Source: Bacteroidales bacterium
GTDB lineage: Bacteria > Bacteroidota > Bacteroidia > Bacteroidales > Tenuifilaceae
DNA: 64,000 bases
NCBI GenBank assembly: GCA_025361485.1
Contig: JANYLA010000162.1
Location: forward strand, 3,969-67,968
Reading direction: 5' to 3'
A program made the position numbers and the translations under genes. Positions within the stretch are counted from its first letter, which is position 1. Every line of letters starts with the position of its first letter. The notes below the pieces were generated by a model. The model worked only from the letters and a program-made list of their open reading frames with translations. It did no database searches and was not told where the DNA came from. This document shows, piece after piece, positions 12,028 through 55,002 of the stretch.

Positions 12028-12215
12028 AAAATATTTTTTCGCATATTAGTAATAATCTACAAATATACAGCTACTTTAATAATTGATATAAATCATCAAT
12101 GCATATTTATTGTTTTAATGCATTATTTTGTAGCATGTTATTAATAATAATATTGTAAATTAATTATTATGCTAACAGTTAGTATGAATAACAAAGATTT
12201 GGACTCAAAGTAAAA

Positions 12216-12629
12216 TTATTCAAAATCTATAAATCCTGGAATACTATCAACCTTCATAGGTCTACCATTATTTAAGCCTACCCCAATTACTTTTGCATGA
12301 ACAACATGTTTATATTCAGGTAATTTATAAATATCCTGCTCGAACACCAATCGTAAATTTCCTTCTTTACAGGTATTCACTTTCACAACAAAGGTATCAT
12401 CGCTCGACAGGGAGTATTTGTAGTCAATCTCAATTCTTGATACAACCAAGTCAATGCCCTCAGTATGCAGTTTTGCAAAATCTATCTTTTTATTCAGCAG
12501 GTATTGATGTCTTGTATGCTCAAGGTAGTTTAGATACACTGCATTATTAACAATTCCCTGTAAATCGCACTCATAATCTCGAACAGTAAATTCAAGTTCG
12601 TACTCGTACTTTTTTTCTTCTTTTATCAT
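12216..12629 (-). CDS. Acyl-CoA thioesterase, 4HBT/YbgC-like hotdog fold
   Basis: TVRDYECDLQGIVNNAVYLNYLEHTRHQYL is the YbgC-type active-site region. I prefer the ATG at 12629 (MIKEEKKYEY) over the longer ORF-track start at 12680. Confidence 0.7.
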   Translation of the reverse strand: MIKEEKKYEYELEFTVRDYECDLQGIVNNAVYLNYLEHTRHQYLLNKKIDFAKLHTEGIDLVVSRIEIDYKYSLSSDDTFVVKVNTCKEGNLRLVFEQDIYKLPEYKHVVHAKVIGVGLNNGRPMKVDSIPGFIDFE

Positions 12630-12756
12630 CTTACTATCAATTGAATTATTGATTATCTCGAGTTTAATAATAATTAACAATCTACATTAAAAACTATTAG
12701 AGTATTTAATTGTTAATAGTTTGCAATAAACCGAAAAATCAATAAAAATCAAATAA

Positions 12757-15457: not shown

Positions 15458-16621
15458 ATGATAACAATAGAATCGCTCGGCAAGCTGGAATCAACTCCAA
15501 CGCCGTTTTATTTTTACGATACTAATCTACTCGACCAAACCCTGCAAAGGGTAAAAGAATCATCAGGGAGATATGGTTTTGAGGTACACTATGCAATTAA
15601 GGCTAACGCAAATCGTAAAATTCTTACACGAATCGCATCATTTGGTCTTGGTGCCGATTGTGTTAGCGGCAATGAGGTTGAACTGGCCATTAAATGTGGC
15701 TTCGATCCTAAAAAAATCGTTTTTGCTGGAGTTGGAAAAACCGATTCAGAGATTGAACTTGCACTTGATAGCAGTATCTTCTGCTTCCATAGTGAATCGG
15801 TACAGGAATTAATTGTCATCAATCAATTAGCAGCACAGCGCTCAATCATTGCAAAGGTTGCATTGAGGTTAAATCCTGATGTTAAGGCAGGAACTCATGC
15901 TCATATTACCACTGGGATGATTGAAAATAAGTTTGGCCTTTCGGTTGATGAGGTGATTGAAGCAAAAAGAATTCTACCTAGCTTGAAAAATATCAATATA
16001 ATTGGGCTTCACTTTCATATCGGCTCTCAAATAACCAACATGGAGGTTTTCAAGACGTTATCGTCAAAAGCAAATCAGCTGAAAAATGAGCTATTCCCTA
16101 AGAATAGTTTCAATTACATCAACATGGGTGGTGGTTTAGGAATCGACTATACAAGACCAAACAGTAACCCTATCCCGGATTTTGAGGGATATTTCTCGAC
16201 CTTTAACCAGAATCTCGTTTTAGAATCAAATCAAAAGATTCATTTTGAGCTAGGTCGTTCAATTGTTGCTCAATGTGGGAGTTTGATTACCAAAGTAACC
16301 TATGTCAAAGGAAGTTCAAAGCATCAATTTGCTGTGGTTGATGCTGGGATGAATGATTTAATCAGACCTGCGCTTTACGACGCAAGCCACTCAATTGTTA
16401 ACCTCTCATCAAATGGTAATATTTTAACATATGATGTAGTTGGTCCAGTTTGTGAGTCAGCCGATTGCTTTGCAAAGGAAATTCCTCTCCCACAGGTACA
16501 GCGTGGAGATATTCTAGCAATCCTTTCATGTGGTGCGTACGGAGAAGTAATGAGTTCAAGATACAACATGAGGGAGATTCCTTACGCTGTTTATTCCCAA
16601 GAAAAACTTGAACCTGCGTAA
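15458..16621 (+). CDS. lysA: Diaminopimelate decarboxylase
   Basis: YAIKAN PLP-lysine motif, GGGLGIDY and CESAD. It begins 4 nt after lysC. Confidence 0.9.
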   Translation: MITIESLGKLESTPTPFYFYDTNLLDQTLQRVKESSGRYGFEVHYAIKANANRKILTRIASFGLGADCVSGNEVELAIKCGFDPKKIVFAGVGKTDSEIELALDSSIFCFHSESVQELIVINQLAAQRSIIAKVALRLNPDVKAGTHAHITTGMIENKFGLSVDEVIEAKRILPSLKNINIIGLHFHIGSQITNMEVFKTLSSKANQLKNELFPKNSFNYINMGGGLGIDYTRPNSNPIPDFEGYFSTFNQNLVLESNQKIHFELGRSIVAQCGSLITKVTYVKGSSKHQFAVVDAGMNDLIRPALYDASHSIVNLSSNGNILTYDVVGPVCESADCFAKEIPLPQVQRGDILAILSCGAYGEVMSSRYNMREIPYAVYSQEKLEPA

Positions 16622-41142: not shown

Positions 41143-41226
41143 GCCCAAATGGCGGAATTGGTAGACGCGCTAGTTTCAGGGACTAGTATCAGCAATGATG
41201 TGCAGGTTCGAGTCCTGTTTTGGGCA
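41143..41226 (+). tRNA. tRNA-Leu (anticodon CAG)
   Basis: Manual fold: acceptor GCCCAAA/TTTGGGC, anticodon stem CTAGT/ACTAG with loop TTCAGGG, long variable arm, T-arm GCAGG-TTCGAGT-CCTGT. No encoded CCA. Confidence 0.9.
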
Positions 41227-41260
41227 CTAGTTCTGAAGTTCTAACTGTTTTGAAATAATT

Positions 41261-41347
41261 GCCCAGGTGGTGAAATTGGTAGACACGCCAGCTTGAGGGG
41301 CTGGTGATCGCAAGGTTGTGCAAGTTCGAGTCTTGTCCTGGGCACCA
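41261..41347 (+). tRNA. tRNA-Leu (anticodon GAG)
   Basis: Manual fold: acceptor GCCCAGG/CCTGGGC, anticodon stem CCAGC/GCTGG with loop TTGAGGG, long variable arm, T-loop TTCGAGT. CCA is encoded. Confidence 0.9.
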
Positions 41348-41428: not shown

Positions 41429-41740
41429 CTATTTAAAATTATTTATTGGATTGTAACGCTTTATCAATCTCTGTTCGAGTTTCATTGCAAAAAGTTCAGA
41501 TTTAGTGTAAAGAACCTTAACTTTTGTTGCACCCTCTGATTTCCCACTTTTTATTGCATCAGATATCTCCTTGACTAAATCGCCATCGCCTGCCCAGCCA
41601 ACATATTTAACTTGGTAAAAAAAATTCGAAAAAACAAAAACCCCTCTTTTGGTCTCTAATCCTTTATACTTATAAAGATCAAGCCAATCTGTTGAATCTA
41701 TCACATTAGGATAACATGTATCGGTATTATAAGATATCAT
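41429..41740 (-). CDS. Small GIY-YIG-like protein (hypothetical)
   Basis: 103 aa. RGVFVFSNFFYQVKYVGWAGD...AMKLEQRLIKRYNPINN loosely follows the GIY..YVG...E..LI...P.N pattern. The match is weak and was made by eye only. Confidence 0.35.
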   Translation of the reverse strand: MISYNTDTCYPNVIDSTDWLDLYKYKGLETKRGVFVFSNFFYQVKYVGWAGDGDLVKEISDAIKSGKSEGATKVKVLYTKSELFAMKLEQRLIKRYNPINNFK

Positions 41741-41800: not shown

Positions 41801-42007
41801 CTACCTCTCAACAATACTTTTAACTTGACATACCCTGCGAATAGGTGAATTTAAAGAAGTTTCGTATTTCTTTTTATCAACTTTTTCAGGATAACTAGTA
41901 AAATAGTCTTTAGAATCTAAAGCATGATTTTTAAATATGTGCTTTAGCAGTTTTTCCTGCTCAACTTTGGAAAACTGATTAAACCAAGTTTCAAATACGT
42001 CTATCAT
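41801..42007 (-). CDS. Hypothetical small protein
   Basis: 68-aa ORF, co-directional and closely spaced with its neighbours. No recognisable motif. Confidence 0.35.
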   Translation of the reverse strand: MIDVFETWFNQFSKVEQEKLLKHIFKNHALDSKDYFTSYPEKVDKKKYETSLNSPIRRVCQVKSIVER

Positions 42008-42034: not shown

Positions 42035-42253
42035 TCAATTGCTCCATTTTTGTTCTAGTTCTTTAACTCGTTTTTCTAATTCGTATTCTTTTCCCATCCA
42101 TTGATAGGCTATATCAGAATAGGTATCTTCATCCCAAATCCCTCTCTCAGGATATTTTTTTTGCATACAGGCTTGCAATCTATCAATCAATTCATAATAC
42201 CTACTATTAACAGTGGTCGAATTTAATTGGTGGCTTTCTGTATTATAGTTCAT
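42035..42253 (-). CDS. Hypothetical small protein
   Basis: 72-aa ORF, first of three co-directional small ORFs. No recognisable motif. Confidence 0.35.
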   Translation of the reverse strand: MNYNTESHQLNSTTVNSRYYELIDRLQACMQKKYPERGIWDEDTYSDIAYQWMGKEYELEKRVKELEQKWSN

Positions 42254-42536
42254 TTTAATCTGGATTTAAGTTGTTATTACACTAAATCATACTTAATATT
42301 TCAATCATCTAACTAACTTTCAACACCATAACAATATGCTCCTTCTCTAATCTTAAGTTATATAAGAATAGGGTCGAATTTGTTACCCGGAAAAATCAAA
42401 TCCGTTCAGTTTTCAATCCAGTATTTTTTATTCTATTCTGTAAAAAAATGCAACCCTTTTGTAACCATTATAGAAAAACGCTGTTTAACCCTATAATAAA
42501 CTAATAATCATCATTGATACTTACCATTAATTTCAA

Positions 42537-42569: not shown

Positions 42570-43166
42570 ATGATAGAATTCTCTGACAAAGAGATAATTG
42601 AATGTTTAAGAAGCCGCCAGAGTTATGTGGTACGGTATCTCTCTGACAGGTATTTACCAATGATACGGCTTATGGTTACTCAAATGGGCGGGACATCAGA
42701 AGATGCAAAAGATATCTTTCAGGATGGACTTATTATTATGCTTGAAAAAATTGACTCTAATCAGTTTAAATTAAGCTGTAAATTCAAAACTTTTCTATAT
42801 AGTGTATGCGAGAACCTCTGGAAATCAATTCTTGAGAAACGAAAAGCAGCAAACAATTATTTTAATCGGAGGCTAGATCAAAGTTCAGAAAATGATTTCT
42901 CGGAGGAATATGATAATCAGCTATACGAAAGCATGCTAAATGAAGTATTCGAAACGCTTGATCCTACCTGCAAGGAAATTCTAAAACTTTACTGGCAAGA
43001 ATATTCACCAATGGAAATAGCCGAAAAACTAGGATATACTTATGGTTATGTTAGAAAGAAGAAGTGCGAATGTCAGGCAGAACTTCTAAAAAGGATTTCG
43101 AATCATCCTAGTTTCAAGCAGATAAAAAGAACGGAGAAGGCAATAATGCAAATAGTTTGCGAATAA
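42570..43166 (+). CDS. RNA polymerase sigma-70 family factor, ECF-like (regions 2 and 4 only)
   Basis: 198 aa. Region 2-like DAKDIFQDGLIIMLEKI...FKTFLYSVCENLW and region 4 HTH EYSPMEIAEKLGYTYGYVRKKKCECQAELLK. Confidence 0.75.
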   Translation: MIEFSDKEIIECLRSRQSYVVRYLSDRYLPMIRLMVTQMGGTSEDAKDIFQDGLIIMLEKIDSNQFKLSCKFKTFLYSVCENLWKSILEKRKAANNYFNRRLDQSSENDFSEEYDNQLYESMLNEVFETLDPTCKEILKLYWQEYSPMEIAEKLGYTYGYVRKKKCECQAELLKRISNHPSFKQIKRTEKAIMQIVCE

Positions 43167-43209: not shown

Positions 43210-44223
43210 ATGAGAAATTATATCGGATATATAATTGATTATTCTGACGGAGCCCTTACTGAACGAAAACGTAAGTGGTTCGAATTAGAATTAGTGCAAA
43301 ATGAAGTTCTACGCAATGAGTTTAATCTCTTCGAACAAATCAATTCAACAATGAGAGGTAAATCTGATTTAAACGAGATACGAAGAGAGCCCGAACTTAA
43401 AGAGGTTGATATTCTCACAAAACAAATGGTATCTGATTTTCAAAGAAACCCAGAAAAATTTGAACCCGCTAAAACATTTGTCGAAAGCTCATTGATTCAA
43501 AACCAAATTGATTTAGAACTTCAAAAAGATCTTAATCTTACATCTGATGAGATTAAAAAACACAACTTAAATGATATTACTAAGGGTTGGGTTGATGAAT
43601 GGAATTCAGCTGATCAGAAGGAAAGTACTGAAACCGTTAATAGAAGATCGTTTATTAACTCATCATTAAGCGATAATATTCAACATGATACCACTCCTAC
43701 GATTAGAAATAAAAAAAACTTAGCGATTCGCATTATAGGATTTTCTGCGGCTGCATTAATTGCAGCTCTATTTGTTATCAAAACCTTAGCCCCATCTAAT
43801 AATCCTGAAGATATTTATAGCGATTTTTACAAACCATTGAATGCTTATACATCAATAACCCGAAACAGCGCAAATACTGTTGATCCATTCTCTAATGCGG
43901 TTGAAAAGTATAAGCAAGGTCAATTTCAGGTTGCAGGAGCTATGTTTTCTGATCTAATTTATGAAGATCCTAGCAATATTTCTTATCGGTTTTTTAGTGG
44001 TTTATCTCAGATGGAACTCGATAACTATGAGCAATCTATTCAATTATTCAGCGAGGTTATTTCTAAAAACGGAGAATTCCAAAAAGAAGCCAAGTGGTAT
44101 CTTAGCCTCTCATATATTAAAACCAACAATCTTCAAAAAGCATCCGTACTCTTAAATGAACTATCTCAAGAAAAAGGTTATTACCAATCCTTGGCTCAGG
44201 ATCTTCTTGAGCGAATGAAATAG
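43210..44223 (+). CDS. Anti-sigma-like single-pass membrane protein with extracytoplasmic TPR domain
   Basis: N-terminus YSDGALTERKRKWFELELVQNEVLRNEF resembles anti-sigma N-domains (no zinc Cys). One TM helix LAIRIIGFSAAALIAALFVI. C-terminal TPR-like repeats (YKQGQFQVAGAMF..., YEQSIQLFSEV..., AKWYLSLSYIK...). Confidence 0.6.
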   Translation: MRNYIGYIIDYSDGALTERKRKWFELELVQNEVLRNEFNLFEQINSTMRGKSDLNEIRREPELKEVDILTKQMVSDFQRNPEKFEPAKTFVESSLIQNQIDLELQKDLNLTSDEIKKHNLNDITKGWVDEWNSADQKESTETVNRRSFINSSLSDNIQHDTTPTIRNKKNLAIRIIGFSAAALIAALFVIKTLAPSNNPEDIYSDFYKPLNAYTSITRNSANTVDPFSNAVEKYKQGQFQVAGAMFSDLIYEDPSNISYRFFSGLSQMELDNYEQSIQLFSEVISKNGEFQKEAKWYLSLSYIKTNNLQKASVLLNELSQEKGYYQSLAQDLLERMK

Positions 44224-46940
44224 AAAGTTATCACGCCAACAAATAATAAAACGCCTAAATAGATTATGTTATTTCGATTACTTTTTATCGGTGAGCTATC
44301 GCCTATTAATTCATATGCTGCCCAGTAGGTAGGTTTTGTATAGGTTGGAGGTGTGGTTCTAAGATAATCTAACTTTGCTAAACGTAACGCTTCGTCCTTT
44401 GCCTTTCCCTTTGACAAGTAATAATAAAAATTGGTAATAATTGTTGCGCTTGCATCATCGTTTACATCCCAGAATGTACTAACCACAGAGGAAACGCCTG
44501 CTAAAATAAAACCTCTGGTTAAACTCATTACACCTTCGCCATGATAAAGGTTACCTGCACCTGTACTACATGCGCTTAACACAACCATAGGCGACTCAAT
44601 GACGCTGGAACCTATTTCATAGTTAAATAATCTTCCATCATCAACCGTATCCAGCAGGTTATCGAAAATAAAATAAGAATATTTGGAGTTACTCGAATCA
44701 GCTTTAGAATGCATTGCAAGATGGTATATTGCAGGTTGCTTCGTTAGCTGTTTAAATTTGTTTTCCGTTGCATCTGCACCCTTATAAATATTACCCTTAA
44801 ACCATTTAAAAATTGAACTTATTTCTCGTCCAGCTCCACGAAGAGTATTGTAGCCTTCTGCTGCACCTTCAGCACCTTTAGTATAGCCAGGGGAAAAAGC
44901 CAATACTTTATTACTAAAATTACCATAATTTCTATTGGATAACAGCGATGAAGTATAACCATACGATATTGTATAGTCATAAATCAAATATTTTAATCCG
45001 TCAAAACCTTCTTGATTTATGTTGGCTCGTTCCTTTACAAATGCTTCAAAAGGCAAATAAGCCAACTCCTCATCGGGAACAATTACAATCCTCTGTCCAC
45101 GGATTTCCTTCTCTATAGGTTTTATAAGTTTCTCATACATGTAGTAAAGCGCATCGACATATCTTTGGTTAGTTGCTGTTGAGTTATTTATAGTGCCCAA
45201 CTTAATTATCCCAATTTGACTAGAATATGCTGAATCAAGGTAAGTTGAGCAATAGTTTAATTGATTCTTTGTAATAGTAAATATGTAAATCTCTCTTTTC
45301 CCTTGCGAGTATTGATTCGACATAAAGTATTCGATGAGAGTTGCATCCTTTTTAAGATTGCTTTGAATTTCCTTTAAACTTGCGGGTTCAGTTTTCTGAA
45401 GAATTGCATCAAATTGCGGATATAGATTTTTAAACCTTTCCTTTACCTCTTCTTCTTTACGATTTAAGTCAAAAAGGGTAGCTTTCCAAAAATCAATTCT
45501 CACAGAATCTGGGGCTTTCTTTTGTATCTCATCCTGAATCAGCTTTGAATATGAAGCAATATTAATAGCTAATTTATTACGCTGGTCTTTTACCGAATCA
45601 TTGATTCTATTCCCTTTCATCAGCTCATTCTCCTTAATCTCGTTCCTAAGAACAGCTGATTTGCTTTTGCAGCATATTTCGTACATTTTATGAGAGAATT
45701 CTTGCTTGTTCGTTAGCTCGAAAAGTTCTTGCGCAATCTTAACCGCAAAGAAATATGTTTCCTTCTCATTTTCTACAAGATAAATTCTACTTTCGGTAGA
45801 TAAATAGCCACTCCTAATTCTTTCTATTAATTGAATTGCCAATTCACCTGTTTCGAGACCTTTAACCAAAATTCGTTGCCTTCTATTCGAATCGGACTGT
45901 TGATTAGAAAATAATTCCAGTGCTTTAGCCTTTTGTTTCAGGTTATCAAGCAAACGAATATCAAAAATCACGGAGTTAAGCGATGGATTAGTGAAAATAT
46001 CAGTATCGTTAAAATCCGAAACAACTGCAATTAATGAATTCTGATAATACCTTAGCGCGGTTTCATAGTCGGTCTGCAAAAAGAAATGATCTCCTAAATG
46101 CTTATAGGCTAAAGAAACTAGAGTGTGTTTTTTTCCATAATTTTTCAAGCAAATCGATAACGCCTTTTGATGTACATCAAGGGCTTCTGCATTTTTTCCA
46201 ATTGACCGCAAGAAAAGACCATAATCAAATAGTAACCCACTGGTTCGATAGTAATCCTTGCCAAACTCACTATTAAAACTTTCAATACTTTTCAAAAAGT
46301 ATTGATTTGCTTTATTATTGACACTTAACTTAGAATATGTTTTTGCTAGGTTAAGATAAGTATGTGCAATCTCAGGAAAAGAGTTTTTCTGTTTAATGTT
46401 TTCACTTTTCTCAAGATATTGTAAGGCTAAATTATATTCCTCCTTTTCAAAGTAGGTCAAACCTAGGTTAAGGTAAGCACCTGATAATCTGAAAAGAATG
46501 GAATTGTTAGAATTTTTATTATTGAGGTAGATTTTAATACCCTGATCTAAGTACTCTATAGCGTTATCTGATTCTTTAAGAATACCGTAGATTCTTGCTT
46601 TATTTATATATATATCAGCCAATTCTGGCGAGACTTGGTTGCCTGTTCCAATAACTGATTCAGCCAAATTCAGATATTTCAGTGCCTCATCATATCTTCC
46701 AAGTCGATTATTAATCACACCAAAATTATTGTATAATGCAACAAGGTAATCCTTGGATAATAATTCCTTCTGCTCAATAATACTTGTTAAGCATTTCTCT
46801 GCATTTATAAAGTCACCTTTTGAGTAATAAATTGCAAAGTTATTAAACTGATCAGAAGGATTAACTTTTTGAGCTTTTATAAAACACGCCAACGAAAGTA
46901 AAACTGATAATAATACTAAAAACCTATAAATTGGAATCAT
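44196..46940 (-). CDS. Secreted, C-terminally membrane-anchored TPR + CHAT (caspase-like protease) domain protein
   Basis: Signal peptide, multiple TPRs, and a CHAT dyad context YHLAMHS (His) and VVLSACSTGAG (Cys). C-terminal TM IIYLGVLLFVGVITFYFI. Its 3' end overlaps the convergent anti-sigma-like gene by 28 nt. Confidence 0.8.
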   Translation of the reverse strand: MIPIYRFLVLLSVLLSLACFIKAQKVNPSDQFNNFAIYYSKGDFINAEKCLTSIIEQKELLSKDYLVALYNNFGVINNRLGRYDEALKYLNLAESVIGTGNQVSPELADIYINKARIYGILKESDNAIEYLDQGIKIYLNNKNSNNSILFRLSGAYLNLGLTYFEKEEYNLALQYLEKSENIKQKNSFPEIAHTYLNLAKTYSKLSVNNKANQYFLKSIESFNSEFGKDYYRTSGLLFDYGLFLRSIGKNAEALDVHQKALSICLKNYGKKHTLVSLAYKHLGDHFFLQTDYETALRYYQNSLIAVVSDFNDTDIFTNPSLNSVIFDIRLLDNLKQKAKALELFSNQQSDSNRRQRILVKGLETGELAIQLIERIRSGYLSTESRIYLVENEKETYFFAVKIAQELFELTNKQEFSHKMYEICCKSKSAVLRNEIKENELMKGNRINDSVKDQRNKLAINIASYSKLIQDEIQKKAPDSVRIDFWKATLFDLNRKEEEVKERFKNLYPQFDAILQKTEPASLKEIQSNLKKDATLIEYFMSNQYSQGKREIYIFTITKNQLNYCSTYLDSAYSSQIGIIKLGTINNSTATNQRYVDALYYMYEKLIKPIEKEIRGQRIVIVPDEELAYLPFEAFVKERANINQEGFDGLKYLIYDYTISYGYTSSLLSNRNYGNFSNKVLAFSPGYTKGAEGAAEGYNTLRGAGREISSIFKWFKGNIYKGADATENKFKQLTKQPAIYHLAMHSKADSSNSKYSYFIFDNLLDTVDDGRLFNYEIGSSVIESPMVVLSACSTGAGNLYHGEGVMSLTRGFILAGVSSVVSTFWDVNDDASATIITNFYYYLSKGKAKDEALRLAKLDYLRTTPPTYTKPTYWAAYELIGDSSPIKSNRNNIIYLGVLLFVGVITFYFIRSRRS

Positions 46941-46972
46941 CTAAATGAAAAGTTTAAGTGATGCAATTTAAA

Positions 46973-47004
46973 TAAAAAAGGACATCCCAATACGAATGTC
47001 CTTT
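46973..47004 (-). terminator. Rho-independent terminator between the GG-peptide gene and the CHAT gene
   Basis: aaaggacat / atgtccttt 9-bp stem with a 10-nt loop. On the minus strand it is followed by a U-tract (complement of the A-run at 46974-79). Confidence 0.75.
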
Positions 47005-47022
47005 GAATTAGAGTTGTATTAC

Positions 47023-47190
47023 TTATTTTGGCTTGGGAATAATTATTATATCTACACCTCCATTATCTTCACCATCCCCTCCTTTAACATTTTTCATATC
47101 ATTCAAACTTAGCACATTATACATGCTTTGATTGAGAGTTAATAAATTGTTCAATTTATTAGGTTTTGCAGTTTTCATCGTGTTTTTCAT
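47023..47190 (-). CDS. Unannotated 55-aa precursor peptide with a double-glycine (GG) leader
   Basis: Hand translation of the minus strand gives MKNTMKTAKPNKLNNLLTLNQSMYNVLSLNDMKNVKGG|DGEDNGGVDIIIIPKPK. LSLNDMKNVKGG fits the LSxxELxxIxGG double-glycine leader consensus. It has its own terminator. It is missing from the ORF track because it is under 60 aa. Confidence 0.6.
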   Translation of the reverse strand: MKNTMKTAKPNKLNNLLTLNQSMYNVLSLNDMKNVKGGDGEDNGGVDIIIIPKPK

Positions 47191-47388
47191 GGCTGTAACA
47201 GTTTAGTTAATTTATGCCGTTACATTAGAATGAACAAATAAATGTTACTTTTTTGATTTATAAAATTTTTAATTCATTGATATACAGATTATTTCTATAA
47301 TATTTACGAGATTAAGAAATGCAATAGTAACAATTCCAATGAGTTTCTAATAAAACTGCAAAATAAATAACCATTATTATTAAATATT

Positions 47389-47637
47389 ATGACAAAATAC
47401 TACGTAAGAGTAAAACCTCAGCTAACCGGAGAAAATGCCGTTCATAAGGAAACCTGTCCTTTTCTAGATGATATTAAGTTAAAAAAATACCTGGGCGAGT
47501 TCTCCACTTGTCAAGATGCAATCAATGAAGCGAGTAGATTTTTCCATCACTCCAAAGGATGTCCTTTTTGTACTTCGGAACATCTTAGCTTACAGCAAAA
47601 TCAATTACGGACTTGGTACCGCTTTTCGTTGACATAA
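47389..47637 (+). CDS. Small Cys-containing hypothetical protein
   Basis: 82 aa with a C-x(n)-C ... CPFC arrangement (KETCPF, STCQD, GCPFC) suggesting metal binding. No family recognised. Confidence 0.4.
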   Translation: MTKYYVRVKPQLTGENAVHKETCPFLDDIKLKKYLGEFSTCQDAINEASRFFHHSKGCPFCTSEHLSLQQNQLRTWYRFSLT

Positions 47638-47800
47638 GGCTTTCTTAAACATTTGTATTGCCTTAAATTAAAATAAACTTTATTAATCATTTATTGTTGA
47701 ACGGTTTACAAAGATCATACGAATTTTATTAAGAACGTTGAATATATTCTAACCTCGCATTTCGTAACTTAGGCAATTACTAAATCAAATAATTGTTTGT

Positions 47801-48535
47801 ATGAAGCTTCGATTACTAACTGTTTTACCAATTGTATTACTTTGTTTTAGACTAAGTGCTCAGTCATCCGACACAATAAAAACATCAAAAGGGAATCTAA
47901 TTATTCACTTTTTAGGTCATGGCACGCTGATGTTCGAGTTCAATGGGAAGATAATACACATCGATCCTTCCTCGAATGTAGCAGATTATGCAAAACTTCC
48001 TAAAGCGGATTTGATACTTATAACCCATCATCATGGAGATCATCTCGATTCTACTGCTTTAGCAAGTATTTATACAAAATCTTCATCACTCTACTGGACC
48101 ACTGAATGTGAAAAAACTAGCAAGTTTAAAGCGCTAGCAAGCGTTTTGCAGAATGGCGACAAGGTGATATGGAAGGGTATTCTAATAGAGGCTGTTCCTG
48201 CCTACAACATTGTTAATAAACGTCAAAATGGAAGTCCGTATCACCCTATGGGTGAAGGCAATGGGTATATCTTAACCTTTAGCAACAAAAGGGTTTATAT
48301 TGCAGGTGATACCGAGAATATTCCTGAAATGCTTAGATTTCGACCCATCGATATTGCATTCTTACCCATGAACTTGCCATATACAATGACCCCCGAAATG
48401 GTGAAAGATGCCGCATTGATGATAAATCCAAAAATTCTTTACCCTTACCATTATGGGAAAACTGATACATCAATTATTGTAGAATTACTGAAGGATACTC
48501 CGTCGATTGAAGTTAGGTTAAGGAAGATGGAATAA
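47801..48535 (+). CDS. Secreted MBL-fold metallo-hydrolase
   Basis: Signal peptide and HHHGDH metal-binding motif. Confidence 0.75.
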   Translation: MKLRLLTVLPIVLLCFRLSAQSSDTIKTSKGNLIIHFLGHGTLMFEFNGKIIHIDPSSNVADYAKLPKADLILITHHHGDHLDSTALASIYTKSSSLYWTTECEKTSKFKALASVLQNGDKVIWKGILIEAVPAYNIVNKRQNGSPYHPMGEGNGYILTFSNKRVYIAGDTENIPEMLRFRPIDIAFLPMNLPYTMTPEMVKDAALMINPKILYPYHYGKTDTSIIVELLKDTPSIEVRLRKME

Positions 48536-48568: not shown

Positions 48569-49576
48569 ATGAAAGCACTAAAAATGATTCTTTACATCGT
48601 GATTGGCATTGTCACATCACTCTTAGTATTTGCATTTTTTCTTCCAGACAAGAAGGTCTTAAGCAACTCTATTATTATCAACTCTTATCCCCGACCTATT
48701 TACGGAATGGTTAATAGCCTTAAAAGTTGGGAGAAATGGTCGCCATTCAGCGAGATGGATCCTGCGATGGTATCTGAGTATAGTGGACCTGAATTTGGTG
48801 TTGGTTCACACCAAGCATGGAAAAGTGAAAAAAATGGGAATGGCAGCATGACTATCCTTGAGAGTATTTTTGAGAAAAAAGTAGTTTTAAACCTTGATTT
48901 AGATTACGGCGGAAAGGACTCAACCCTATTTATTCTTGAGAGAGTTCCAGAAGGAACAAAAGTTACTTGGGAAACTCGAATTACTAAAGCAGGTTACCCA
49001 ATGGGTCGACTGATGTGGGTTGCAATGGGGGGTATGATGAATAAAACCTTTTATCAAGGTCTAGAGAAACTTAAAAAAGTGGTTGAAAACCTACCTCCTG
49101 TTTGCAAATCGGGTGATGTAATGGAATCAAATGAACCTGAAAAAATTTACCTTACAATTACTGATACCCTTACAACTGAAAACATTGCTCAATTCTTTGG
49201 CGCTGCATATGGGAAAATCGGCGCTTTAATGAAAACCAATCAAGGTGTTAAAATGGTTGGTGCTCCGGCAGCTTTTTACAATGGCGATCCATCTAACCCT
49301 GTTTGGATTGTAACTGCCGCTATACCCGTTAACATGGAACCAAAAAAACTCACACAAGGGATTTCGGTTCTTAAAACACCTGCTCTGAAAATGGTTTCGG
49401 TGGTTCATTATGGTGATTATAGCACATCAAGCGATTCTTACTACAAACTTGAAGACTATATGAAGTCAAAAAAGTATGAGGTAATTGGCAATCCACTTGA
49501 AGAGTATATTACAGACCCAATGAATGTTAAAGATCCAATGATGATTGAGACCAAGATTAGTTTTCCCGTTAAATAG
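48569..49576 (+). CDS. Membrane-anchored SRPBCC-like + GyrI-like (effector-binding) two-domain protein
   Basis: N-terminal TM. The first half resembles polyketide-cyclase/SRPBCC proteins. The second half (YLTITDT...VVHYGDYSTSSDSYYKLEDYM...IETKISFPV) resembles GyrI-like/AraC-E-bind domains. Confidence 0.5.
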   Translation: MKALKMILYIVIGIVTSLLVFAFFLPDKKVLSNSIIINSYPRPIYGMVNSLKSWEKWSPFSEMDPAMVSEYSGPEFGVGSHQAWKSEKNGNGSMTILESIFEKKVVLNLDLDYGGKDSTLFILERVPEGTKVTWETRITKAGYPMGRLMWVAMGGMMNKTFYQGLEKLKKVVENLPPVCKSGDVMESNEPEKIYLTITDTLTTENIAQFFGAAYGKIGALMKTNQGVKMVGAPAAFYNGDPSNPVWIVTAAIPVNMEPKKLTQGISVLKTPALKMVSVVHYGDYSTSSDSYYKLEDYMKSKKYEVIGNPLEEYITDPMNVKDPMMIETKISFPVK

Positions 49577-49658: not shown

Positions 49659-51581
49659 CTACTTTTTCTTTTTAATTCCTATGGTTTTTGCAATATAATT
49701 GGGTGGAACAGTTGACGGAGGCACCTTAAAATCAAACCATTCAGATACATGCTCATCGAGTCCAACTCCATGCATAAAGTTATAAATTGATTTTTCGAGC
49801 CCCTTCCCTACTCTCTGATAATCGTATGTTGATTCTTCGATATATTCAACCTCGTTATTCGCATACGAGTTAGGCTTTAACGATACGCGCTTAACTCCAA
49901 ATAATTCTGGTTTTATACCCGAAGGGCTATGACAAGTCATGGCGTATCGATGCCAAAAGCCAGATTGAACCAATGCGTTTTCAAACAGTTGTCGAACAAT
50001 TTCAAGGGAATCGATTGTTTCCTGTAAAGTTTGAGTAGGAAATCCATACATAAGATACGTATGAACCATTATCCCTGCATCATGCATATTTTTGCAGCTG
50101 ATGGCAGCCTGCTCAACGGTAACGCCTTTGTTCATAAGTGCAAGCAACCTATTCGATGCAACCTCTAATCCACCGGTTAGAGCGATACAACCAGATTTTG
50201 CCATCAGGTGGCAAAGTTCTCTTGTAAAACTTTTCTCAAAGCGAATGTTGGTCCACCAAGTAACAGTAAGCCCTCGTTTGATTATCTCTTCAGATAACTT
50301 TCTCAGTAATGCTGGCGGTGCAGCCTCATCAACAAAATGAAAACCTGAACTTCGTGTTTGATTAATAACACTCACCATATTATCCACAATTGCTGAGGCA
50401 TCAAATGATTGATAATTTGAGATATAAGGTAATGATGTATCACAGAAAGCACACTTGGCCCAATAACAACCCCTAGCTAACTGCATTTTATTCCAAAATC
50501 CATTGCTCCATAAACTGTGCGTTGGATTAGGAAGCTCCATCAAGGAAAGATATTTCTCTACTTCAATTCCGTCGTAATCGGGTGCAGGAATCGCTTTCAA
50601 CTTTAAATCTTCGTCAACTCCATCAAAATACTTAATATCTCCATTCGGGTTAATCATTGTTTTAACCAATGGAGTTCGTTTATCATTCTCGTATTGAACT
50701 AATCGAAACAGTGGCAGCTCGCCATCATCAAAAATGATATAATCGGTGTATTTAAAGATTGATGTATCGCTAAGCACACGAAGCTCAGTGTTGATATAAC
50801 CCCCTCCAAGAACAATTTTCGTCTCTGGAAAATTTTCTTTTAAATATTTGCCACACCGAAGGGCGGCGTATAAATTGCCCGGAAAAGGCACAGTAAATCC
50901 AATAATCTTTGGCTTGTAAAGCTCAACCTTTTTATGAAGTAACGAAAGCATTAATCTATCGACAATATTTGGCTCTTTGCTCAGCTCTTCTTCAAGCGGA
51001 TTAAATGTTGGCAATGATAATGAGATTCGCTCAGCATATTTTGTAACTCCAAAATGAGAACAAATATTTTCACGAATAAAGTCAGCAATATCAAGGATAA
51101 AAAGAGTTGCCAAATGCCGAGCCATATCGGTTTTACCGATGCTACCAAACCACCAATCTAAATCCTCAATCTGGTTAAATCGTTTCCCTTCAGGTAGAAG
51201 TTCTCTCGTGCATATGCGCTGAGCAAGAGTATTATCATTGCCTCTTAAAAATTGCTTTACTGGTTCTATAAGATTGATACAATCTGTACTTTTTGACAAA
51301 ATTGATTTAGCAGTTTCCGTTTTGCTATTACTTATGATACTTTCAGATTGCAAAACCTCAGAAAGAAAATCCTTGCTCAAAACTGCATCAATTAGCTCAA
51401 TGCTTAAATCAAACTGCGTGGCTTCAATCTTATGAGCTCTTAAAAAGGCTAGTAGCTGCATTGTTGCAGGGTATGGCGCATTAATCTGCGTTAATGGGGG
51501 TGTGATTAGAAGTACCTCGGTATTCAATTTTTTGAATTTGATTTTAACAAAGGTATTGATTTTATTGTGGAGAAAATTCAA
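49659..51581 (-). CDS. B12-binding-domain radical SAM protein (class B-like), function unknown
   Basis: N-terminal VLLITPP... Rossmann-like B12-binding region. Cys cluster RGCYWAKCAFCD, followed by a radical SAM barrel. No in-frame ATG precedes the conserved N-terminus. The ORF-track start at 51581 is TTG, with an alternative TTG at 51527. Confidence 0.75.
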   Translation of the reverse strand: MNFLHNKINTFVKIKFKKLNTEVLLITPPLTQINAPYPATMQLLAFLRAHKIEATQFDLSIELIDAVLSKDFLSEVLQSESIISNSKTETAKSILSKSTDCINLIEPVKQFLRGNDNTLAQRICTRELLPEGKRFNQIEDLDWWFGSIGKTDMARHLATLFILDIADFIRENICSHFGVTKYAERISLSLPTFNPLEEELSKEPNIVDRLMLSLLHKKVELYKPKIIGFTVPFPGNLYAALRCGKYLKENFPETKIVLGGGYINTELRVLSDTSIFKYTDYIIFDDGELPLFRLVQYENDKRTPLVKTMINPNGDIKYFDGVDEDLKLKAIPAPDYDGIEVEKYLSLMELPNPTHSLWSNGFWNKMQLARGCYWAKCAFCDTSLPYISNYQSFDASAIVDNMVSVINQTRSSGFHFVDEAAPPALLRKLSEEIIKRGLTVTWWTNIRFEKSFTRELCHLMAKSGCIALTGGLEVASNRLLALMNKGVTVEQAAISCKNMHDAGIMVHTYLMYGFPTQTLQETIDSLEIVRQLFENALVQSGFWHRYAMTCHSPSGIKPELFGVKRVSLKPNSYANNEVEYIEESTYDYQRVGKGLEKSIYNFMHGVGLDEHVSEWFDFKVPPSTVPPNYIAKTIGIKKKK

Positions 51582-52857: not shown

Positions 52858-53664
52858 ATGTACTTCCACTCAAACCTTAAATTTTTAAGAAAGCGCAAGG
52901 GTTTAACACAAGAAGAATTTTCTGAAGCGCTTAAAATAAAAAGACCAACATTAAACAACTACGAGAACAAAGTCTCTCAACCAACGCTAAGCATTCAATT
53001 GGCAGTTTCCGATTACTTCGGAATTTCCGTTGATGTTTTACTCAAGGTTGATCTCAACACCTTTACCGAGTTTCAATTTGAAGAGCTAGAGAAGGGTTCC
53101 GATATCTATACTAAGGGAACAAACCTTAGAATTTTAACTTCGACTGTTGGAAGTGATAATGAAGAAAACATCGAACTTGTAACTGCGAAGGTAAAGGCTG
53201 GTTACATGTCAGGTTATGCCGATCCTGAGTATGTCAGCTCGCTTCCGGTTTATCGCTTGCCATTCCTGAAAAACGATCGTAAGTATCGTACTTTCCAAAT
53301 TAGCGGCGATTCGATGCTACCAATCCCTGATGGTGCTTGGGTAACGGGTGAATTCATTCAAGATTGGACATCAATAAAAACAGGCGAAGCTTGCATTGTT
53401 CTTACTCGAGAAGATGGTTTGGTTTTTAAGATTATTGAAAATCAACTTATCGAAACAGGGCATTTTGTGCTTTCATCTCTTAATCCACTTTTTCATCCCT
53501 TTGAAGTTAAAGGGCAAGATATTTTTGAGGTTTGGAAGTTTGTTCACTACACCACCGATCATCTGCCCGAAGGCAATGTTAGCATTGAACAGCTGATGAT
53601 GTCGGTTCAGAAACTTATCAAAGATGTTGATGAATTAAAACTAGAACTTAGAAAGAAAGAATAG
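52858..53664 (+). CDS. CI/XRE-type HTH + S24 peptidase repressor (non-canonical LexA-like of Bacteroidota)
   Basis: N-terminal HTH LKFLRKRKGLTQEEFSEALKIKRPTLNNYENK. S24 catalytic Ser in ISGDSMLP and Lys in GLVFKII. Confidence 0.8.
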   Translation: MYFHSNLKFLRKRKGLTQEEFSEALKIKRPTLNNYENKVSQPTLSIQLAVSDYFGISVDVLLKVDLNTFTEFQFEELEKGSDIYTKGTNLRILTSTVGSDNEENIELVTAKVKAGYMSGYADPEYVSSLPVYRLPFLKNDRKYRTFQISGDSMLPIPDGAWVTGEFIQDWTSIKTGEACIVLTREDGLVFKIIENQLIETGHFVLSSLNPLFHPFEVKGQDIFEVWKFVHYTTDHLPEGNVSIEQLMMSVQKLIKDVDELKLELRKKE

Positions 53665-53751: not shown

Positions 53752-55002
53752 ATGGAGACGCTAGATAAACTCAAAATCCTTTCGGCTGCTGCCAAGTACG
53801 ATGTTTCTTGTTCCTCAAGCGGAAGCAATCGGAAGAATACTGCTGGAGGATTGGGCAATACCTCGTTTGCAGGTATCTGCCATAGTTTTGCCGACGATGG
53901 GCGATGTATTTCACTCCTCAAAATTCTATTTACAAACCATTGCATTTACGATTGCGCATACTGTTCAAACCGAAGGAGCAACGATATTCAGCGTACAATT
54001 TTTACTGTCGACGAAGTTGTTGACCTAACCATAAATTTTTACAGAAGAAACTATATCGAAGGGTTATTTCTTAGCTCAGGAGTGGTTAAAAGCCCCGATT
54101 ACACGATGGAGCGTCTTGCACGAGTTGCACGAGATTTAAGAATTGTGCACCATTTCAATGGTTATATCCATGTTAAGAGTATTCCAGGTTCAAGTCCTGA
54201 TCTTATCAAAGCAGCAGGACTTTATGCCGATAGGCTTAGCGTTAATATTGAAATTCCATCGGAGCAAAACCTGAAGCTGCTTGCTCCAGATAAAAACTAC
54301 AGGAGCATTCTCGATCCAATGAGTTATATACGCAACGAGATTGATGTAAATAAAGAAGAACGTCGAAAGTATAGTAAAGCACCAATCTTTACCCCTGCCG
54401 GGCAAAGCACTCAGCTAATTATTGGAGCAACACCTGATACTGATAGCCAGATAATGCATCTATCATCATCCCTTTACTCAGAGAATAAGCTAAAAAGGGT
54501 TTACTACTCTGCATATAATCCTACGAATGAATATGATAAACGCTTACCAGCATTAACAACGCCTCCACTTCGCAGGGAACATCGGCTTTACCAAGCCGAT
54601 TGGCTGCTGCGATTCTATCAATTTAATGTTGATGAAATTGTGAATGATAATAACCCAAATCTTGATCTTGAACTTGATCCTAAGTTAGGGTATGCGCTAA
54701 GAAATCCTCATCTTTTCCCCGTTGATATCAATCGTGCCGATTTGCATATGATTCTTCGTGTACCAGGCATTGGACCAAAATCGGCTAACCTAATTCTATC
54801 GGCACGTAGATTCAGTAAGCTGAACTCGTTTCATCTGCAAAAGATTGGGGTGGTTATGAAGCGAGCACGATATTTTATTACCTGTCATGAACTTTCCAGC
54901 CCATCGATACAGGAAATAACACCATTGAGACTAAGAACGCAGCTAATGCAATCGGAACGCAGCAAGCAACCGACGGATGCGATGCAGCTATCTCTTTTTT
55001 GA
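53752..55002 (+). CDS. Putative DNA modification/repair radical SAM protein (TIGR03916-like)
   Basis: KYDVSCSSSG N-terminus, radical SAM cluster NHCIYDCAYC (CX3CX2C) and C-terminal helix-hairpin-helix VPGIGPKSANLIL. Confidence 0.7.
   Translation: METLDKLKILSAAAKYDVSCSSSGSNRKNTAGGLGNTSFAGICHSFADDGRCISLLKILFTNHCIYDCAYCSNRRSNDIQRTIFTVDEVVDLTINFYRRNYIEGLFLSSGVVKSPDYTMERLARVARDLRIVHHFNGYIHVKSIPGSSPDLIKAAGLYADRLSVNIEIPSEQNLKLLAPDKNYRSILDPMSYIRNEIDVNKEERRKYSKAPIFTPAGQSTQLIIGATPDTDSQIMHLSSSLYSENKLKRVYYSAYNPTNEYDKRLPALTTPPLRREHRLYQADWLLRFYQFNVDEIVNDNNPNLDLELDPKLGYALRNPHLFPVDINRADLHMILRVPGIGPKSANLILSARRFSKLNSFHLQKIGVVMKRARYFITCHELSSPSIQEITPLRLRTQLMQSERSKQPTDAMQLSLF

Follow-up and report, generated by a model that had tools for sequence, protein, structure and literature searches.

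What does a small peptide with a double-glycine-type leader do next to the gene of a caspase-like TPR-CHAT protease, with no exporter gene beside it? The question is raised by the window, that is, the whole 64 kb stretch of Bacteroidales DNA analyzed here, in which a sequence-only reading had pointed out the peptide gene. The function that we infer for it, with about even confidence, is that of a sigma-controlled peptide which would be exported and cleaved in trans and would act on a periplasmic TPR-CHAT/anti-sigma pair as a component of an envelope-signaling module. The features on which the analysis draws are collected in Table 1.

Table 1. Features of the peptide locus, in coordinates of the window
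Feature	Position	Strand	Description and basis
Peptide gene	47023..47190	-	55 aa + stop; translation, family searches, position-specific conservation, dN/dS
Peptide leader	47077..47190	-	residues 1-38, ends KGG
Peptide core	47026..47076	-	residues 39-55, DGEDNGGVDIIIIPKPK
Peptide stop codon	47023..47025	-	
Promoter motif copy 1, peptide gene	47215..47250	-	AAGTAACATTTATTTGTTCATTCTAATGTAACGGCA; ends ~25 nt before ATG
Promoter motif copy 2, small His/Cys3 gene	47325..47360	+	29 nt upstream of gene
Promoter motif copy 3, sigma-divergent unit	42353..42388	-	faces away from sigma gene
Intrinsic-terminator-like hairpin + T-run	46967..47004	-	between peptide and TPR-CHAT genes
TPR-CHAT protease	44196..46940	-	914 aa; Pfam CHAT 9.6e-48 + TPRs
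ECF sigma factor	42570..43166	+	198 aa; TIGR02937 2.5e-19
Putative anti-sigma factor, TPR337	43210..44223	+	337 aa; TPR matches, TM prediction, alignment
Small cytoplasmic His/Cys3 protein, small82	47389..47637	+	82 aa; divergent from peptide gene; tblastn matches in all loci
B12-binding radical SAM	49659..51581	-	640 aa; 2.5 kb from peptide gene
Second radical SAM	53752..55002		

Translation of the open reading frame gives exactly the residues and stop codon that the sequence-only reading had quoted. The gene is not unannotated, as was claimed there, since an identical protein, though nameless, is present in an NCBI-derived collection (P0001). No Pfam or NCBIfam model covers it, and this, together with its short length and the AT-rich genome, would speak for a chance open reading frame in an intergenic region, an explanation whose probability is close to nil. 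Besides four close homologs and 27 representatives at 50% identity, the family includes at least 474 clusters at 90% identity, and hundreds of homologs keep both length and motif. The pairwise dN/dS of the gene is 0.07-0.6, well under 1 and with abundant synonymous change, the pooled pN/pS is lower in the core (0.21) than in the leader (0.37), and the gene is bracketed by a conserved promoter and terminator. The homolog counts and dN/dS already refute the idea of a chance frame. Given these dN/dS values and a leader and core common to at least 474 clusters, the frame is, on sequence grounds, a real, translated small gene that founds an undescribed family of ~55-aa Bacteroidales peptides from Tenuifilaceae-like lineages. 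A six-frame hmmsearch found no paralogs within the 64 kb window, the sole family match being the peptide itself (E=8e-27). Scans of genomes and metagenomes with degenerate patterns, which may have been too specific, gave at least one and at least three loci, respectively, among the matches listed. A 573-aa protein (P0021) was rejected as a family member, being a false positive from a low-complexity repeat.

The pattern common to the clusters is a 38-aa leader ending in GG and followed by a core of the form D/E-G-E-x-N-G-G-x-x-IIII-P. Among the 108 motif-bearing members the leader is 38 aa long in 99. Gly occupies position -1 in all 108 (..VKGG|DGE in the window peptide); Gly at -2, V/I at -4 and L at -12 are each found in 107 members, and M at -7 is found in 104. 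The double-glycine leader architecture proposed from the window alone is therefore kept across these members and agrees with the central positions (-4/-7/-12) of the double-glycine rule, and the peripheral preferences of the rule for a hydrophobic residue at -15 and an acidic one at -8 are not followed, these positions being mostly Asn (Tyr in the window peptide) and mostly Ala (Asp in the window peptide), respectively. The core comprises ~15-20 aa, of which ~14 are conserved, with an acidic head and an Ile-rich composition. Only 2/108 cores contain Cys, in agreement with the earlier remark that a Cys-free core is unlike that of a bacteriocin. In a subgroup of the family the DGE motif is set off from the GG by two inserted residues (SA or ST). 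In the complete genome of Tenuifilaceae bacterium CYCD (AP027304.1), which carries the module at about 529-552 kb, the counterpart of the core reads DGEDNGGADIIIPIPIP....

The peptide had also been said to resemble the GG-type precursors of Bacteroidetes, with an HMM search named as the check. The only curated model matching it is TIGR04149 (GG_sam_targ_CFB, the rSAM-modified GG-leader RiPP precursors of Bacteroidetes), which gives 14.8 bits (E=0.02) for the window peptide against a cutoff of 25 bits, so that a weak resemblance of the leader stands and membership does not. Six of 27 family members match this model at E<=1, the best at 4.4e-4, and the match falls in the leader region; the core is unrelated, and no SPASM/rSAM maturase is conserved with the peptide. 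With class II bacteriocins, bacteroidetocins, ComC and BlpC the peptide shares the GG at -2/-1, the hydrophobic residues at -4/-7/-12, the lack of a Sec signal and the arrangement of a small gene followed by a terminator. The pheromone genes ComC and BlpC lie within the regulon of the adjacent regulator, as the peptide gene of the module appears to do. In contrast to these double-glycine peptides, whose leaders have 15-24 aa, the peptide has a leader of 38 aa, no consistently linked exporter, immunity gene or kinase receptor, and a short, acidic, Ile-rich core without Cys that is highly conserved instead of varying between strains. Nothing in it corresponds to what defines class II bacteriocins and bacteroidetocins, namely a cationic chain of ~40+ aa, Cys pairs and exporter, immunity or TM neighbors (PMC6671954).

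Cleavage of GG leaders has been demonstrated experimentally in Bacteroidales, where the characterized GG peptides have a C39/ABC exporter adjacent (PMC6671954). Here no Peptidase_C39 or ABC_membrane domain was found among the scanned ORFs of the window (all those of at least 490 aa except a 2189-aa ORF at 38..6607), and no C39/ABC exporter is listed among the genes of the related loci, 14-23 kb each, as the sequence-only reading had anticipated for this locus. Since, unlike in the characterized cases, no C39 exporter is linked to the gene, export and GG cleavage of the peptide are stated here as conditional steps. The same reading was incorrect in finding no radical SAM enzyme in the locus, for two are encoded there (Table 1). 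The B12-binding one was considered as a maturase and rejected: its best NCBIfam match, the RiPP C-methyltransferase model TIGR03975, gives 88.6 bits against a cutoff of 282. It was also set aside as a part of the system, with a counterpart only in L006/L017, the nearest relative, and none in L007-L021. Its identity to L006 (84%) exceeds that of the peptide (70%) and of the CHAT protein (61%). SPASM proteins occur in L010 and L014 and are not conserved across loci, nor is the adjacency of any radical SAM/SPASM maturase to the peptide. The MBL hydrolase and SRPBCC genes between the radical SAM and peptide genes were likewise rejected; no locus beyond those of the closest relatives has them, and in L018 they lie elsewhere. 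In sum, the earlier interpretation holds for the leader, the core, the missing exporter and the suspected role of the CHAT protease, and fails for the unannotated status and the absence of radical SAM enzymes.

A comparison of the loci with enough flank (the window, L006/17/18, L007, L008, L009, L010/11/13, L014/15, L019, L020 and L021) identified a conserved module of five genes in all of them, encoding the peptide (one or two copies), the TPR-CHAT protease, a single-pass TPR protein, an ECF sigma factor and a small His/Cys3 protein; the outer flanks vary between loci. At least 11 further peptide and CHAT matches have a longest contig of equal length, which points to co-location on one contig. 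The peptide gene lies directly upstream of the TPR-CHAT gene, as had been noted, and the invariant synteny gives strong support to the suspected involvement of the CHAT protease. Because the peptide is always found beside the protease and the sigma/anti-sigma pair, with a special promoter common to three units of the module, it probably serves in an envelope signaling switch and not as a free-standing bacteriocin. PADLOC gave no meaningful match for any protein of the module, and an annotation as anti-phage defense was rejected.

The ECF sigma factor is present in each locus with 61-82% identity and has no match in a PDB sequence search. Its gene is preceded by a TAnnTTTG box of the Bacteroidetes housekeeping type, not by the promoter motif of the module. 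Always directly 3' of it is the gene of TPR337. A single TM helix (~residues 170-196) is predicted in this protein, separating an N-terminal domain in the cytoplasm from a TPR domain in the periplasm (~residues 197-337), and a juxtamembrane segment, LLPS..PEKLF..YY.P, is conserved. Profile search and alignment revealed neither an HxxxCxxC motif nor a recognizable zinc anti-sigma domain in TPR337, and for this reason its role as a putative anti-sigma factor is drawn from gene context. The small His/Cys3 protein, small82, has conserved residues H19, C23, C58 and C61 and no Pfam, NCBIfam or PADLOC match.

The units of the module share an ECF-type promoter motif, GGTAACAATT-N11-CCGATATAAC, which can also be written GGTAACAATT-N11-CC[GT]AT[AT][AT]AAC. 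Typical ECF promoters have an AAC -35 element, a T-tract and a CGA-type -10 element (PMC5758882), all of which are present in the motif. A PWM scan returned exactly three matches in the 64 kb window and none in shuffles. In the related loci (14-23 kb each scanned) there are three matches apiece, and four in L021, always before the peptide gene, the small82 gene and the sigma-divergent unit; the motif was found 5' of the peptide genes in every locus examined. As the PWM was built from peptide promoters only, the copy before small82 lies outside the training set, and it still reaches 19.3 bits; homologous sites are present in L006-L021. The sequence-only reading had missed both the ECF sigma/anti-sigma/TPR-CHAT module and the ECF-type promoter common to the three units.

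The promoters of the peptide and small82 genes form a back-to-back pair, and this co-regulation with a cytoplasmic protein is one reason to consider that the peptide might stay uncleaved in the cytoplasm and bind the sigma factor, the cytoplasmic domain of the anti-sigma factor or the His/Cys3 protein as an anti-anti-sigma factor or feedback inhibitor. It would then be a small protein of two parts, with a helix at the N terminus, a Gly/acidic hinge and a tail of Ile4-Pro. The missing exporter at every locus and the unusual length (38 aa in 99/108) and good conservation of the "leader" would be readily accommodated, but the Gly residues at -1/-2 and the hydrophobic residues at -4/-7/-12 fit the double-glycine leader rule closely, the TIGR04149 matches in the leader region recur even if below threshold, and the SA/ST insertion between GG and DGE is what is expected at a cleavage junction. 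We consider a purely cytoplasmic peptide quite improbable.

At the other end of the gene, the terminator claimed at 46973-47004 is borne out by a hairpin of 11 pairs followed by a T-run (hairpin 47004..46977(-)), the sole such site in 46500..47900 as compared with 0.4 expected from shuffles; the TPR-CHAT gene starts 36 nt past the hairpin. A hairpin and T-run are kept in position, with differing sequence, in L001, L003a/b, L008, L009, L010, L014, L019, L020 and L021. The terminator is probably leaky, so that peptide mRNA would exceed CHAT mRNA. A highly expressed small gene limited by a terminator is a typical trait of precursor peptides, and with a GG-type leader and an ECF-type promoter, by which the gene would be a target of the regulon, the peptide could be merely a secreted output (an effector or natural product, such as a bacteriocin-like peptide, a RiPP or an interspecies signal), whose production the module switches on in response to another envelope cue with no action of the peptide back on it. 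This is unlikely in view of the lack of a conserved modification enzyme, immunity gene or exporter (the B12-binding radical SAM belongs to the nearest relative only) and of a core that is short, acidic and hydrophobic, and Cys-free. Furthermore, the core is nearly invariant across the family when the leaders have diverged to 35-45% identity, the opposite of the usual diversification of bacteriocins and pheromones.

The TPR-CHAT protease starts with a signal peptide (..FIKA|QK) and, by hydropathy, ends in a TM helix followed by the tail RSRRS, and its bulk is therefore predicted to be periplasmic. The A|Q site and the basic tail are kept in the consensus of 55 homologs, in which H740, H744 and C791 are invariant, H744 and C791 forming the predicted catalytic dyad. 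Sequence searches of the PDB matched the CHAT protein and TPR337 to generic TPR entries only, and DdvA was not detected by sequence. The AF2 model of the protease (pLDDT 82.7) has as best Foldseek matches the craspase TPR-CHAT (Csx29), DdvA and separase, which on the basis of this model is the fold of the protein.

In craspase, the TPR-CHAT protein Csx29 cuts Csx30, a binding partner of the sigma factor RpoE, and CHAT substrates are usually encoded next to their protease (PMC9729208). It is thus conceivable that the TPR-CHAT protease is a maturation enzyme that cuts the peptide at or near the GG or after a conserved core Asn/Asp, possibly with transpeptidation, to release an active product. 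The order of peptide, leaky terminator and protease indeed resembles precursor-enzyme operons, the catalytic dyad is invariant and no C39 protease is linked. However, with a CHAT protease predicted to be periplasmic and a peptide without a Sec signal, a separate exporter would still be required, and this exporter, if a PCAT, would already take off the leader. Since the known specificities of clan-CD/CHAT proteases (Arg, Asp, Leu/Met) also do not include Gly-Gly, we regard maturation by the CHAT protease as improbable.

We return to the peptide as part of a periplasmic switch, for which the following course can be proposed. The sigma/anti-sigma operon would be transcribed from a housekeeping promoter, and the free sigma factor, presumably the one that reads the motif, would act on the three ECF-type promoters, driving the peptide gene (with read-through into TPR-CHAT), the small82 gene and a third, variable unit. 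Having no Sec signal, the peptide would be exported by means of its 38-aa double-glycine-type leader and cleaved after the GG by an unlinked C39-type ABC exporter. For the released core (D/E-G-E-x-N-G-G-x-x-IIII-P...) the TPR domains of the CHAT protease, of the anti-sigma factor or of both may be the periplasmic targets, the core being an activating ligand, pseudo-substrate or substrate; it would tune the CHAT-dependent site-1 cleavage of the anti-sigma factor and so close a feedback loop on sigma activity. In its most specific form, which is possible and held only tentatively, the scheme has the cell itself make and export the peptide as the ligand (or securin-like pseudo-substrate) gating the periplasmic TPR-CHAT protease, the cleaved anti-sigma factor setting free the ECF sigma factor to act on the peptide gene. 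Two observations count against such readings: the leader is much longer and better conserved than a PCAT requires, and the core is strongly conserved family-wide, unlike that of typical strain-specific pheromones.

A precedent for part of this scheme is DdvA-DdvS of Myxococcus xanthus, in which the anti-sigma factor DdvA has a periplasmic TPR-CHAT and responds to a signal that is not known (PMC11506125). In both systems an ECF sigma factor is accompanied by a partner that spans the membrane once, and a TPR-CHAT of the separase/craspase type, with a His-Cys dyad, lies in the periplasm. The DdvA structures 8rw5 and 8rot match the AF2 model of the window protein with E=1.1e-11, and in the proposed logic of both the CHAT is the site-1 protease in regulated anti-sigma proteolysis. 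They differ in that DdvA is a fusion of TPR-CHAT to a zinc-binding anti-sigma domain, whereas the CHAT of the module is a separate gene in all loci, its product having a signal peptide and a C-terminal anchor of its own and no sequence-level similarity to DdvA. The anti-sigma candidate lacks a CHCC zinc domain and carries a separate, small TPR domain in the periplasm. The module in addition has obligatory GG-leader peptide and His/Cys3 neighbors under sigma-type promoters, and the regulon visible at its locus is the module itself, not CRISPR/CBASS. DdvA-like proteins have been reported only from Myxococcota and one Comamonas species (PMC11506125). The best structural matches to the TPR-CHAT protease come from type III-E Craspase (7zoq_A, 2.7e-12; 7y85_D, TMt 0.59), which also has its TPR-CHAT encoded beside a sigma factor and a sigma-binding substrate; Craspase is cytoplasmic, RNA-activated through gRAMP and has neither a peptide nor a membrane topology.

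The DegS/AlgW pathways are alike in concept, a short envelope peptide motif turning on the protease that starts anti-sigma degradation. In these, OMP C-termini or MucE activate DegS/AlgW, leading to cleavage of RseA/MucA. DegS and AlgW are PDZ-serine proteases whose signals are Sec-exported proteins, in contrast to the caspase-like protease and GG-leader peptide of the module.

TPR-CHAT proteases have recently emerged as sigma-factor switches, and of the two kinds the trigger is RNA for Craspase and not known for DdvA, the only characterized periplasmic case. The module, by inference a split, peptide-equipped relative of DdvA-DdvS, would extend this architecture to a widespread Bacteroidales lineage, always with a tiny GG-leader peptide under an ECF-type promoter. 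It offers a candidate synthesizable ligand or substrate of 14-17 residues in a compact five-gene system for periplasmic caspase-like regulation; if the proposal is true, the module would work as a peptide-gated caspase/sigma feedback switch, and the DdvA-type TPR-CHAT anti-sigma class would gain, in the gating peptide, the first of its input molecules to be identified. Both the peptide (at least 474 clusters) and the small His/Cys3 protein are new families without a curated model, and the case is a caution for genome mining that a GG-leader peptide is not necessarily a bacteriocin or RiPP.

A further observation concerns the third unit under the shared promoter. A HisKA/HATPase kinase was considered as a receptor of the peptide and set aside as not part of the core module, being encoded beside the sigma gene in L007-L020 and missing in the window, L006 and L021. 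In the window the third copy of the motif points toward two small ORFs, 42035..42253(-) and 41801..42007(-), which have no Pfam or NCBIfam match, and at distant loci the equivalent site precedes the HisKA/HATPase kinase gene.

Translation of the minus strand bears out the small ORF proposed by the sequence-only reading; the product is MKNTMKTAKPNKLNNLLTLNQSMYNVLSLNDMKNVKGGDGEDNGGVDIIIIPKPK. The ORF had been called unannotated, but an identical protein is already present, without a name, in an NCBI-derived protein collection. A word-index search returned three close homologues besides this entry, and when 1.84 billion representatives were searched with a profile, 27 matched at E<=1e-3, 26 of these being peptides 53-82 aa long. 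The profile/word search collected at least 474 clusters at 90% identity, mostly from Bacteroidales MAGs and throughout either unnamed or labelled 'hypothetical protein'. Purifying selection acts on the ORF at the protein level, and its C-terminal part is more constrained: in Nei-Gojobori comparisons of nine close gene copies, dN/dS is 0.07-0.61 with dS of up to 2, and the pooled pN/pS of the leader (0.37) exceeds that of the core (0.21).

The gene belongs to a conserved five-gene module. We compared the window proteins by tblastn with loci of diverse family members (40-87% peptide identity), and all loci with enough flank (L006/17/18, L007, L008, L009, L010/11/13, L014/15, L019, L020 and L021, the last from Tenuifilaceae bacterium CYCD, whose genome is complete, AP027304.1) carry the same genes in unchanged order. 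Besides the peptide these are TPR-CHAT (39-62% identity to the window protein), a TPR protein, TPR337, encoded convergently with TPR-CHAT (33-47%), an ECF sigma factor encoded upstream of TPR337 (61-82%), and a small ORF divergent from the peptide gene (32-60%). The outer flanks vary (CN-hydrolase/GGT, sulfatases with a glycyl-radical enzyme, a rhamnose operon, a MacB permease, an integrase), and a HisKA/HATPase kinase gene is divergent from the sigma gene in many loci and absent from the window, L006 and L021. No account linking GG-leader peptides to CHAT proteases or to ECF modules turned up in full-text literature searches; each component is of a known kind, and the combination is new. In L019 the TPR-CHAT gene is called as four ORFs, reflecting either assembly-error frameshifts or a pseudogene; the genes for the peptide and for the anti-sigma and sigma factors appear undamaged there. 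A phage-type integrase gene adjoins the module in L021. Two tandem tRNA-Leu genes mark the module edge in the window, followed by minus-strand small ORFs with no family match; the 68-aa one among them has a counterpart in L006 at 41% identity.

Coordinates of the module, its surroundings and selected features of related loci
Locus	Feature	Position	Strand
Window	2189-aa ORF	38..6607	+
Window	tRNA-Leu(CAG)	41143..41227	+
Window	tRNA-Leu(GAG)	41261..41347	+
Window	Small ORF	41429..41740	-
Window	Small ORF	41801..42007	-
Window	Small ORF	42035..42253	-
Window	Promoter motif, sigma-adjacent intergenic region, pointing away from sigma toward small ORFs	42353..42388	-
Window	ECF sigma factor	42570..43166	+
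Window	TPR337, 337 aa	43210..44223	+
Window	TPR-CHAT, 914 aa	44196..46940	-
Window	Hairpin and T-run	47004..46977	-
Window	Peptide	47023..47190	-
Window	Peptide core	47026..47076	-
Window	Promoter motif, before peptide	47215..47250	-
Window	Promoter motif, 29 nt before small ORF	47325..47360	+
Window	Small His/Cys3 ORF, 82 aa	47389..47637	+
Window	MBL hydrolase	47801..48535	+
Window	SRPBCC/GyrI protein	48569..49576	+
Window	B12-rSAM, 640 aa	49659..51581	-
Window	LexA-like repressor	52858..53664	+
Window	rSAM with helix-hairpin-helix motifs	53752..55002	+
L003	Tandem peptide genes	909..1073 and 1299..1466	
L005	Tandem peptide genes	644..811 and 1087..1254	
L006	Tandem peptide genes	10001..10162 and 11252..11419	
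L019	TPR-CHAT as four ORFs	10579..13066	
L021	Phage-type integrase	7768..9042	-
L021	Third promoter motif	14497..14532	+
L021	Fourth promoter motif	15911..15946	-

TPR-CHAT begins with a signal peptide whose A|Q site is conserved and ends in a TM helix and a basic tail, and the bulk of the protein is therefore predicted to be periplasmic. Residues H740, H744 and C791 are invariant among 55 homologues. The best full-length PDB matches of its AF2 model (pLDDT 82.7, pTM 0.74) are craspase TPR-CHAT (7zoq_A, E=2.7e-12; 7y85_D, TMt 0.59), the anti-sigma factor DdvA (8rw5/8rot, E=1.1e-11) and human separase (9hn0 and others, E=3.0e-11). The N-terminal ~165 aa of TPR337 are cytoplasmic and include a conserved IT..WVKEW motif; a single TM helix leads to a conserved juxtamembrane segment in the periplasm and then to the C-terminal TPR domain. 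TPR337 carries no zinc anti-sigma motif, and it is a putative anti-sigma factor by virtue of the constant placement of its gene behind the sigma gene. The small ORF, always behind the common promoter motif described below, conserves His19, Cys23, Cys58 and Cys61, likely a zinc site; it has no match in Pfam, NCBIfam or PADLOC and represents a separate, uncharacterised family.

A common motif, GGTAACA(T/A)TT-N11-CC(G/T)AT(A/T)(A/T)AAC, recurs upstream of the peptide genes and ends ~25-35 nt before the ATG. With both strands of the 64 kb window scanned, a PWM trained on peptide promoters only gave three sites in total and 0 in 20 shuffles. A refined PWM found exactly three sites per related locus scanned (14-20 kb), at positions equivalent to those of the window, and four in L021; several of these sites were absent from the training set, and the third precedes the kinase gene where present. 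The fourth motif of L021 faces the third across ~1.4 kb, with one called gene (86 aa) in between. An AAC -35 element, a subsequent T-tract and a CGA/CTA-type -10 element, all present in the motif, are characteristic of ECF promoters (PMC5758882). No Bacteroidetes housekeeping signature is present in the module motif. A TAnnTTTG box, which we take to be the Bacteroidetes housekeeping -7 element, lies upstream of the sigma gene in all loci. The simplest reading is that the sigma/anti-sigma operon would be constitutive, and that the ECF sigma factor would drive the peptide gene (with CHAT), the small ORF and a variable third unit.

The strong terminator described 3' of the peptide gene was located as a hairpin of 11 pairs and a T-run, the single terminator-like site in 46500..47900 (shuffles expect 0.4); its position is conserved across loci and its sequence is not. 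The peptide gene does lie directly upstream of the TPR-CHAT gene, whose start codon follows the hairpin by 36 nt in the window, so that CHAT expression probably depends on read-through past the hairpin, as in precursor-enzyme operons.

Position counts were taken from 108 sequences, those among 137 small family members that fit a simple motif pattern; the remaining 29 have the same architecture with small variations. The leader is 38 aa long in 99/108, with Gly at -1 (108/108) and -2 (107/108), R/K at -3 (105/108), V/I at -4 (107/108), Met at -7 (104/108), Leu at -12 (107/108), Ile at -13 (85/108) and Glu at -14 (91/108). The core consensus, D/E(+1)-G-E-x-N/D-G-G/S-x-x-[IV]-I-I-I-P-[KP]-P, is followed by a short variable tail that is often Pro-, Lys- or Thr-rich; Cys occurs in just 2/108 cores, and one subgroup has SA or ST inserted between GG and the DGE motif. 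No hydrophobic segment was found in the peptide, which therefore has no Sec signal. Pfam gave no match to it, and the sole NCBIfam match, over the leader, was to TIGR04149 (GG_sam_targ_CFB, a model of rSAM-modified GG-leader RiPP precursors); 6 of 27 diverse members match this model at E<=1 (best E-value 4.4e-4). These sub-cutoff matches support the suggested resemblance to Bacteroidetes GG-precursor leaders, but not membership of TIGR04149, the score being 14.8 bits vs a cutoff of 25. No curated HMM covering the peptide family or the His/Cys3 protein was found.

As the sequence-only reading had stated, no exporter is linked: Peptidase_C39/ABC is absent from every locus gene list and from the window ORFs scanned, among them all those of 490 aa or more other than the 2189-aa ORF at the window start. 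Its statement that the locus has no radical SAM enzyme is incorrect, a B12-binding rSAM gene lying 2.5 kb upstream of the peptide on the same strand. The best NCBIfam match of this enzyme is the RiPP C-methyltransferase subfamily TIGR03975, well short of its cutoff (88.6 vs 282 bits). We rejected it as a module part and regard it as a bystander, as it is 84% identical in L006 (CHAT 61%) and absent elsewhere; the MBL, SRPBCC and rSAM genes are confined to the closest relatives. Further along, the gene of a LexA-like HTH_3/Peptidase_S24 repressor precedes another rSAM gene, an arrangement that resembles a DNA-repair pair linked to the SOS response.

In DdvA, an anti-sigma factor that spans the membrane, the periplasmic TPR-CHAT has been proposed to cleave itself and so provide the site-1 step; the triggering signal is not known (PMC11506125). 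Our module resembles a split version of DdvA with an obligatory small peptide in addition. Craspase TPR-CHAT cleaves Csx30, itself bound to the sigma factor RpoE, and the same study notes that genes for CHAT substrates commonly neighbour that of the protease (PMC9729208); for bacteroidetocins, GG cleavage has been shown in Bacteroidales (PMC6671954). We therefore favour a scheme in which the peptide would be made under sigma control, an unlinked C39 exporter would then secrete it and remove the leader behind GG, and the conserved core would act on the periplasmic TPR domains of CHAT, of the anti-sigma factor or of both and so modulate cleavage of the anti-sigma factor. The core could activate (positive feedback), inhibit in a securin-like manner (negative feedback) or itself be cleaved. 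Among the weakest links of this scheme are the complete lack of a linked exporter and the unusually long conserved leader, and it is possible that the peptide stays cytoplasmic and uncleaved. The core is near-invariant while leaders have diverged, which argues for a fixed intracellular or envelope partner and against a strain-specific pheromone or antibiotic target.

In its conserved D-G-E-x-N-G-G spacing (acidic/amide residues at 1, 3 and 5, Gly at 6) the core is similar to the first half of a Ca2+-binding loop of the EF-hand or dockerin type; taken together with the GG before it, the sequence becomes GGxGxD, as in a single RTX repeat. Either may be coincidence. Some relatives (L003, L005, L006) have two tandem peptide copies, consistently one of the ..IIIIPK(PK) type and one of the ..IIIPFP(P)K type. 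In L006 the promoter of the first copy is degenerate and Tyr replaces the conserved Asp at +1, so this copy may be decaying. The window retains a single copy, of the IIIIPKPK type, together with the terminator of the upstream copy.
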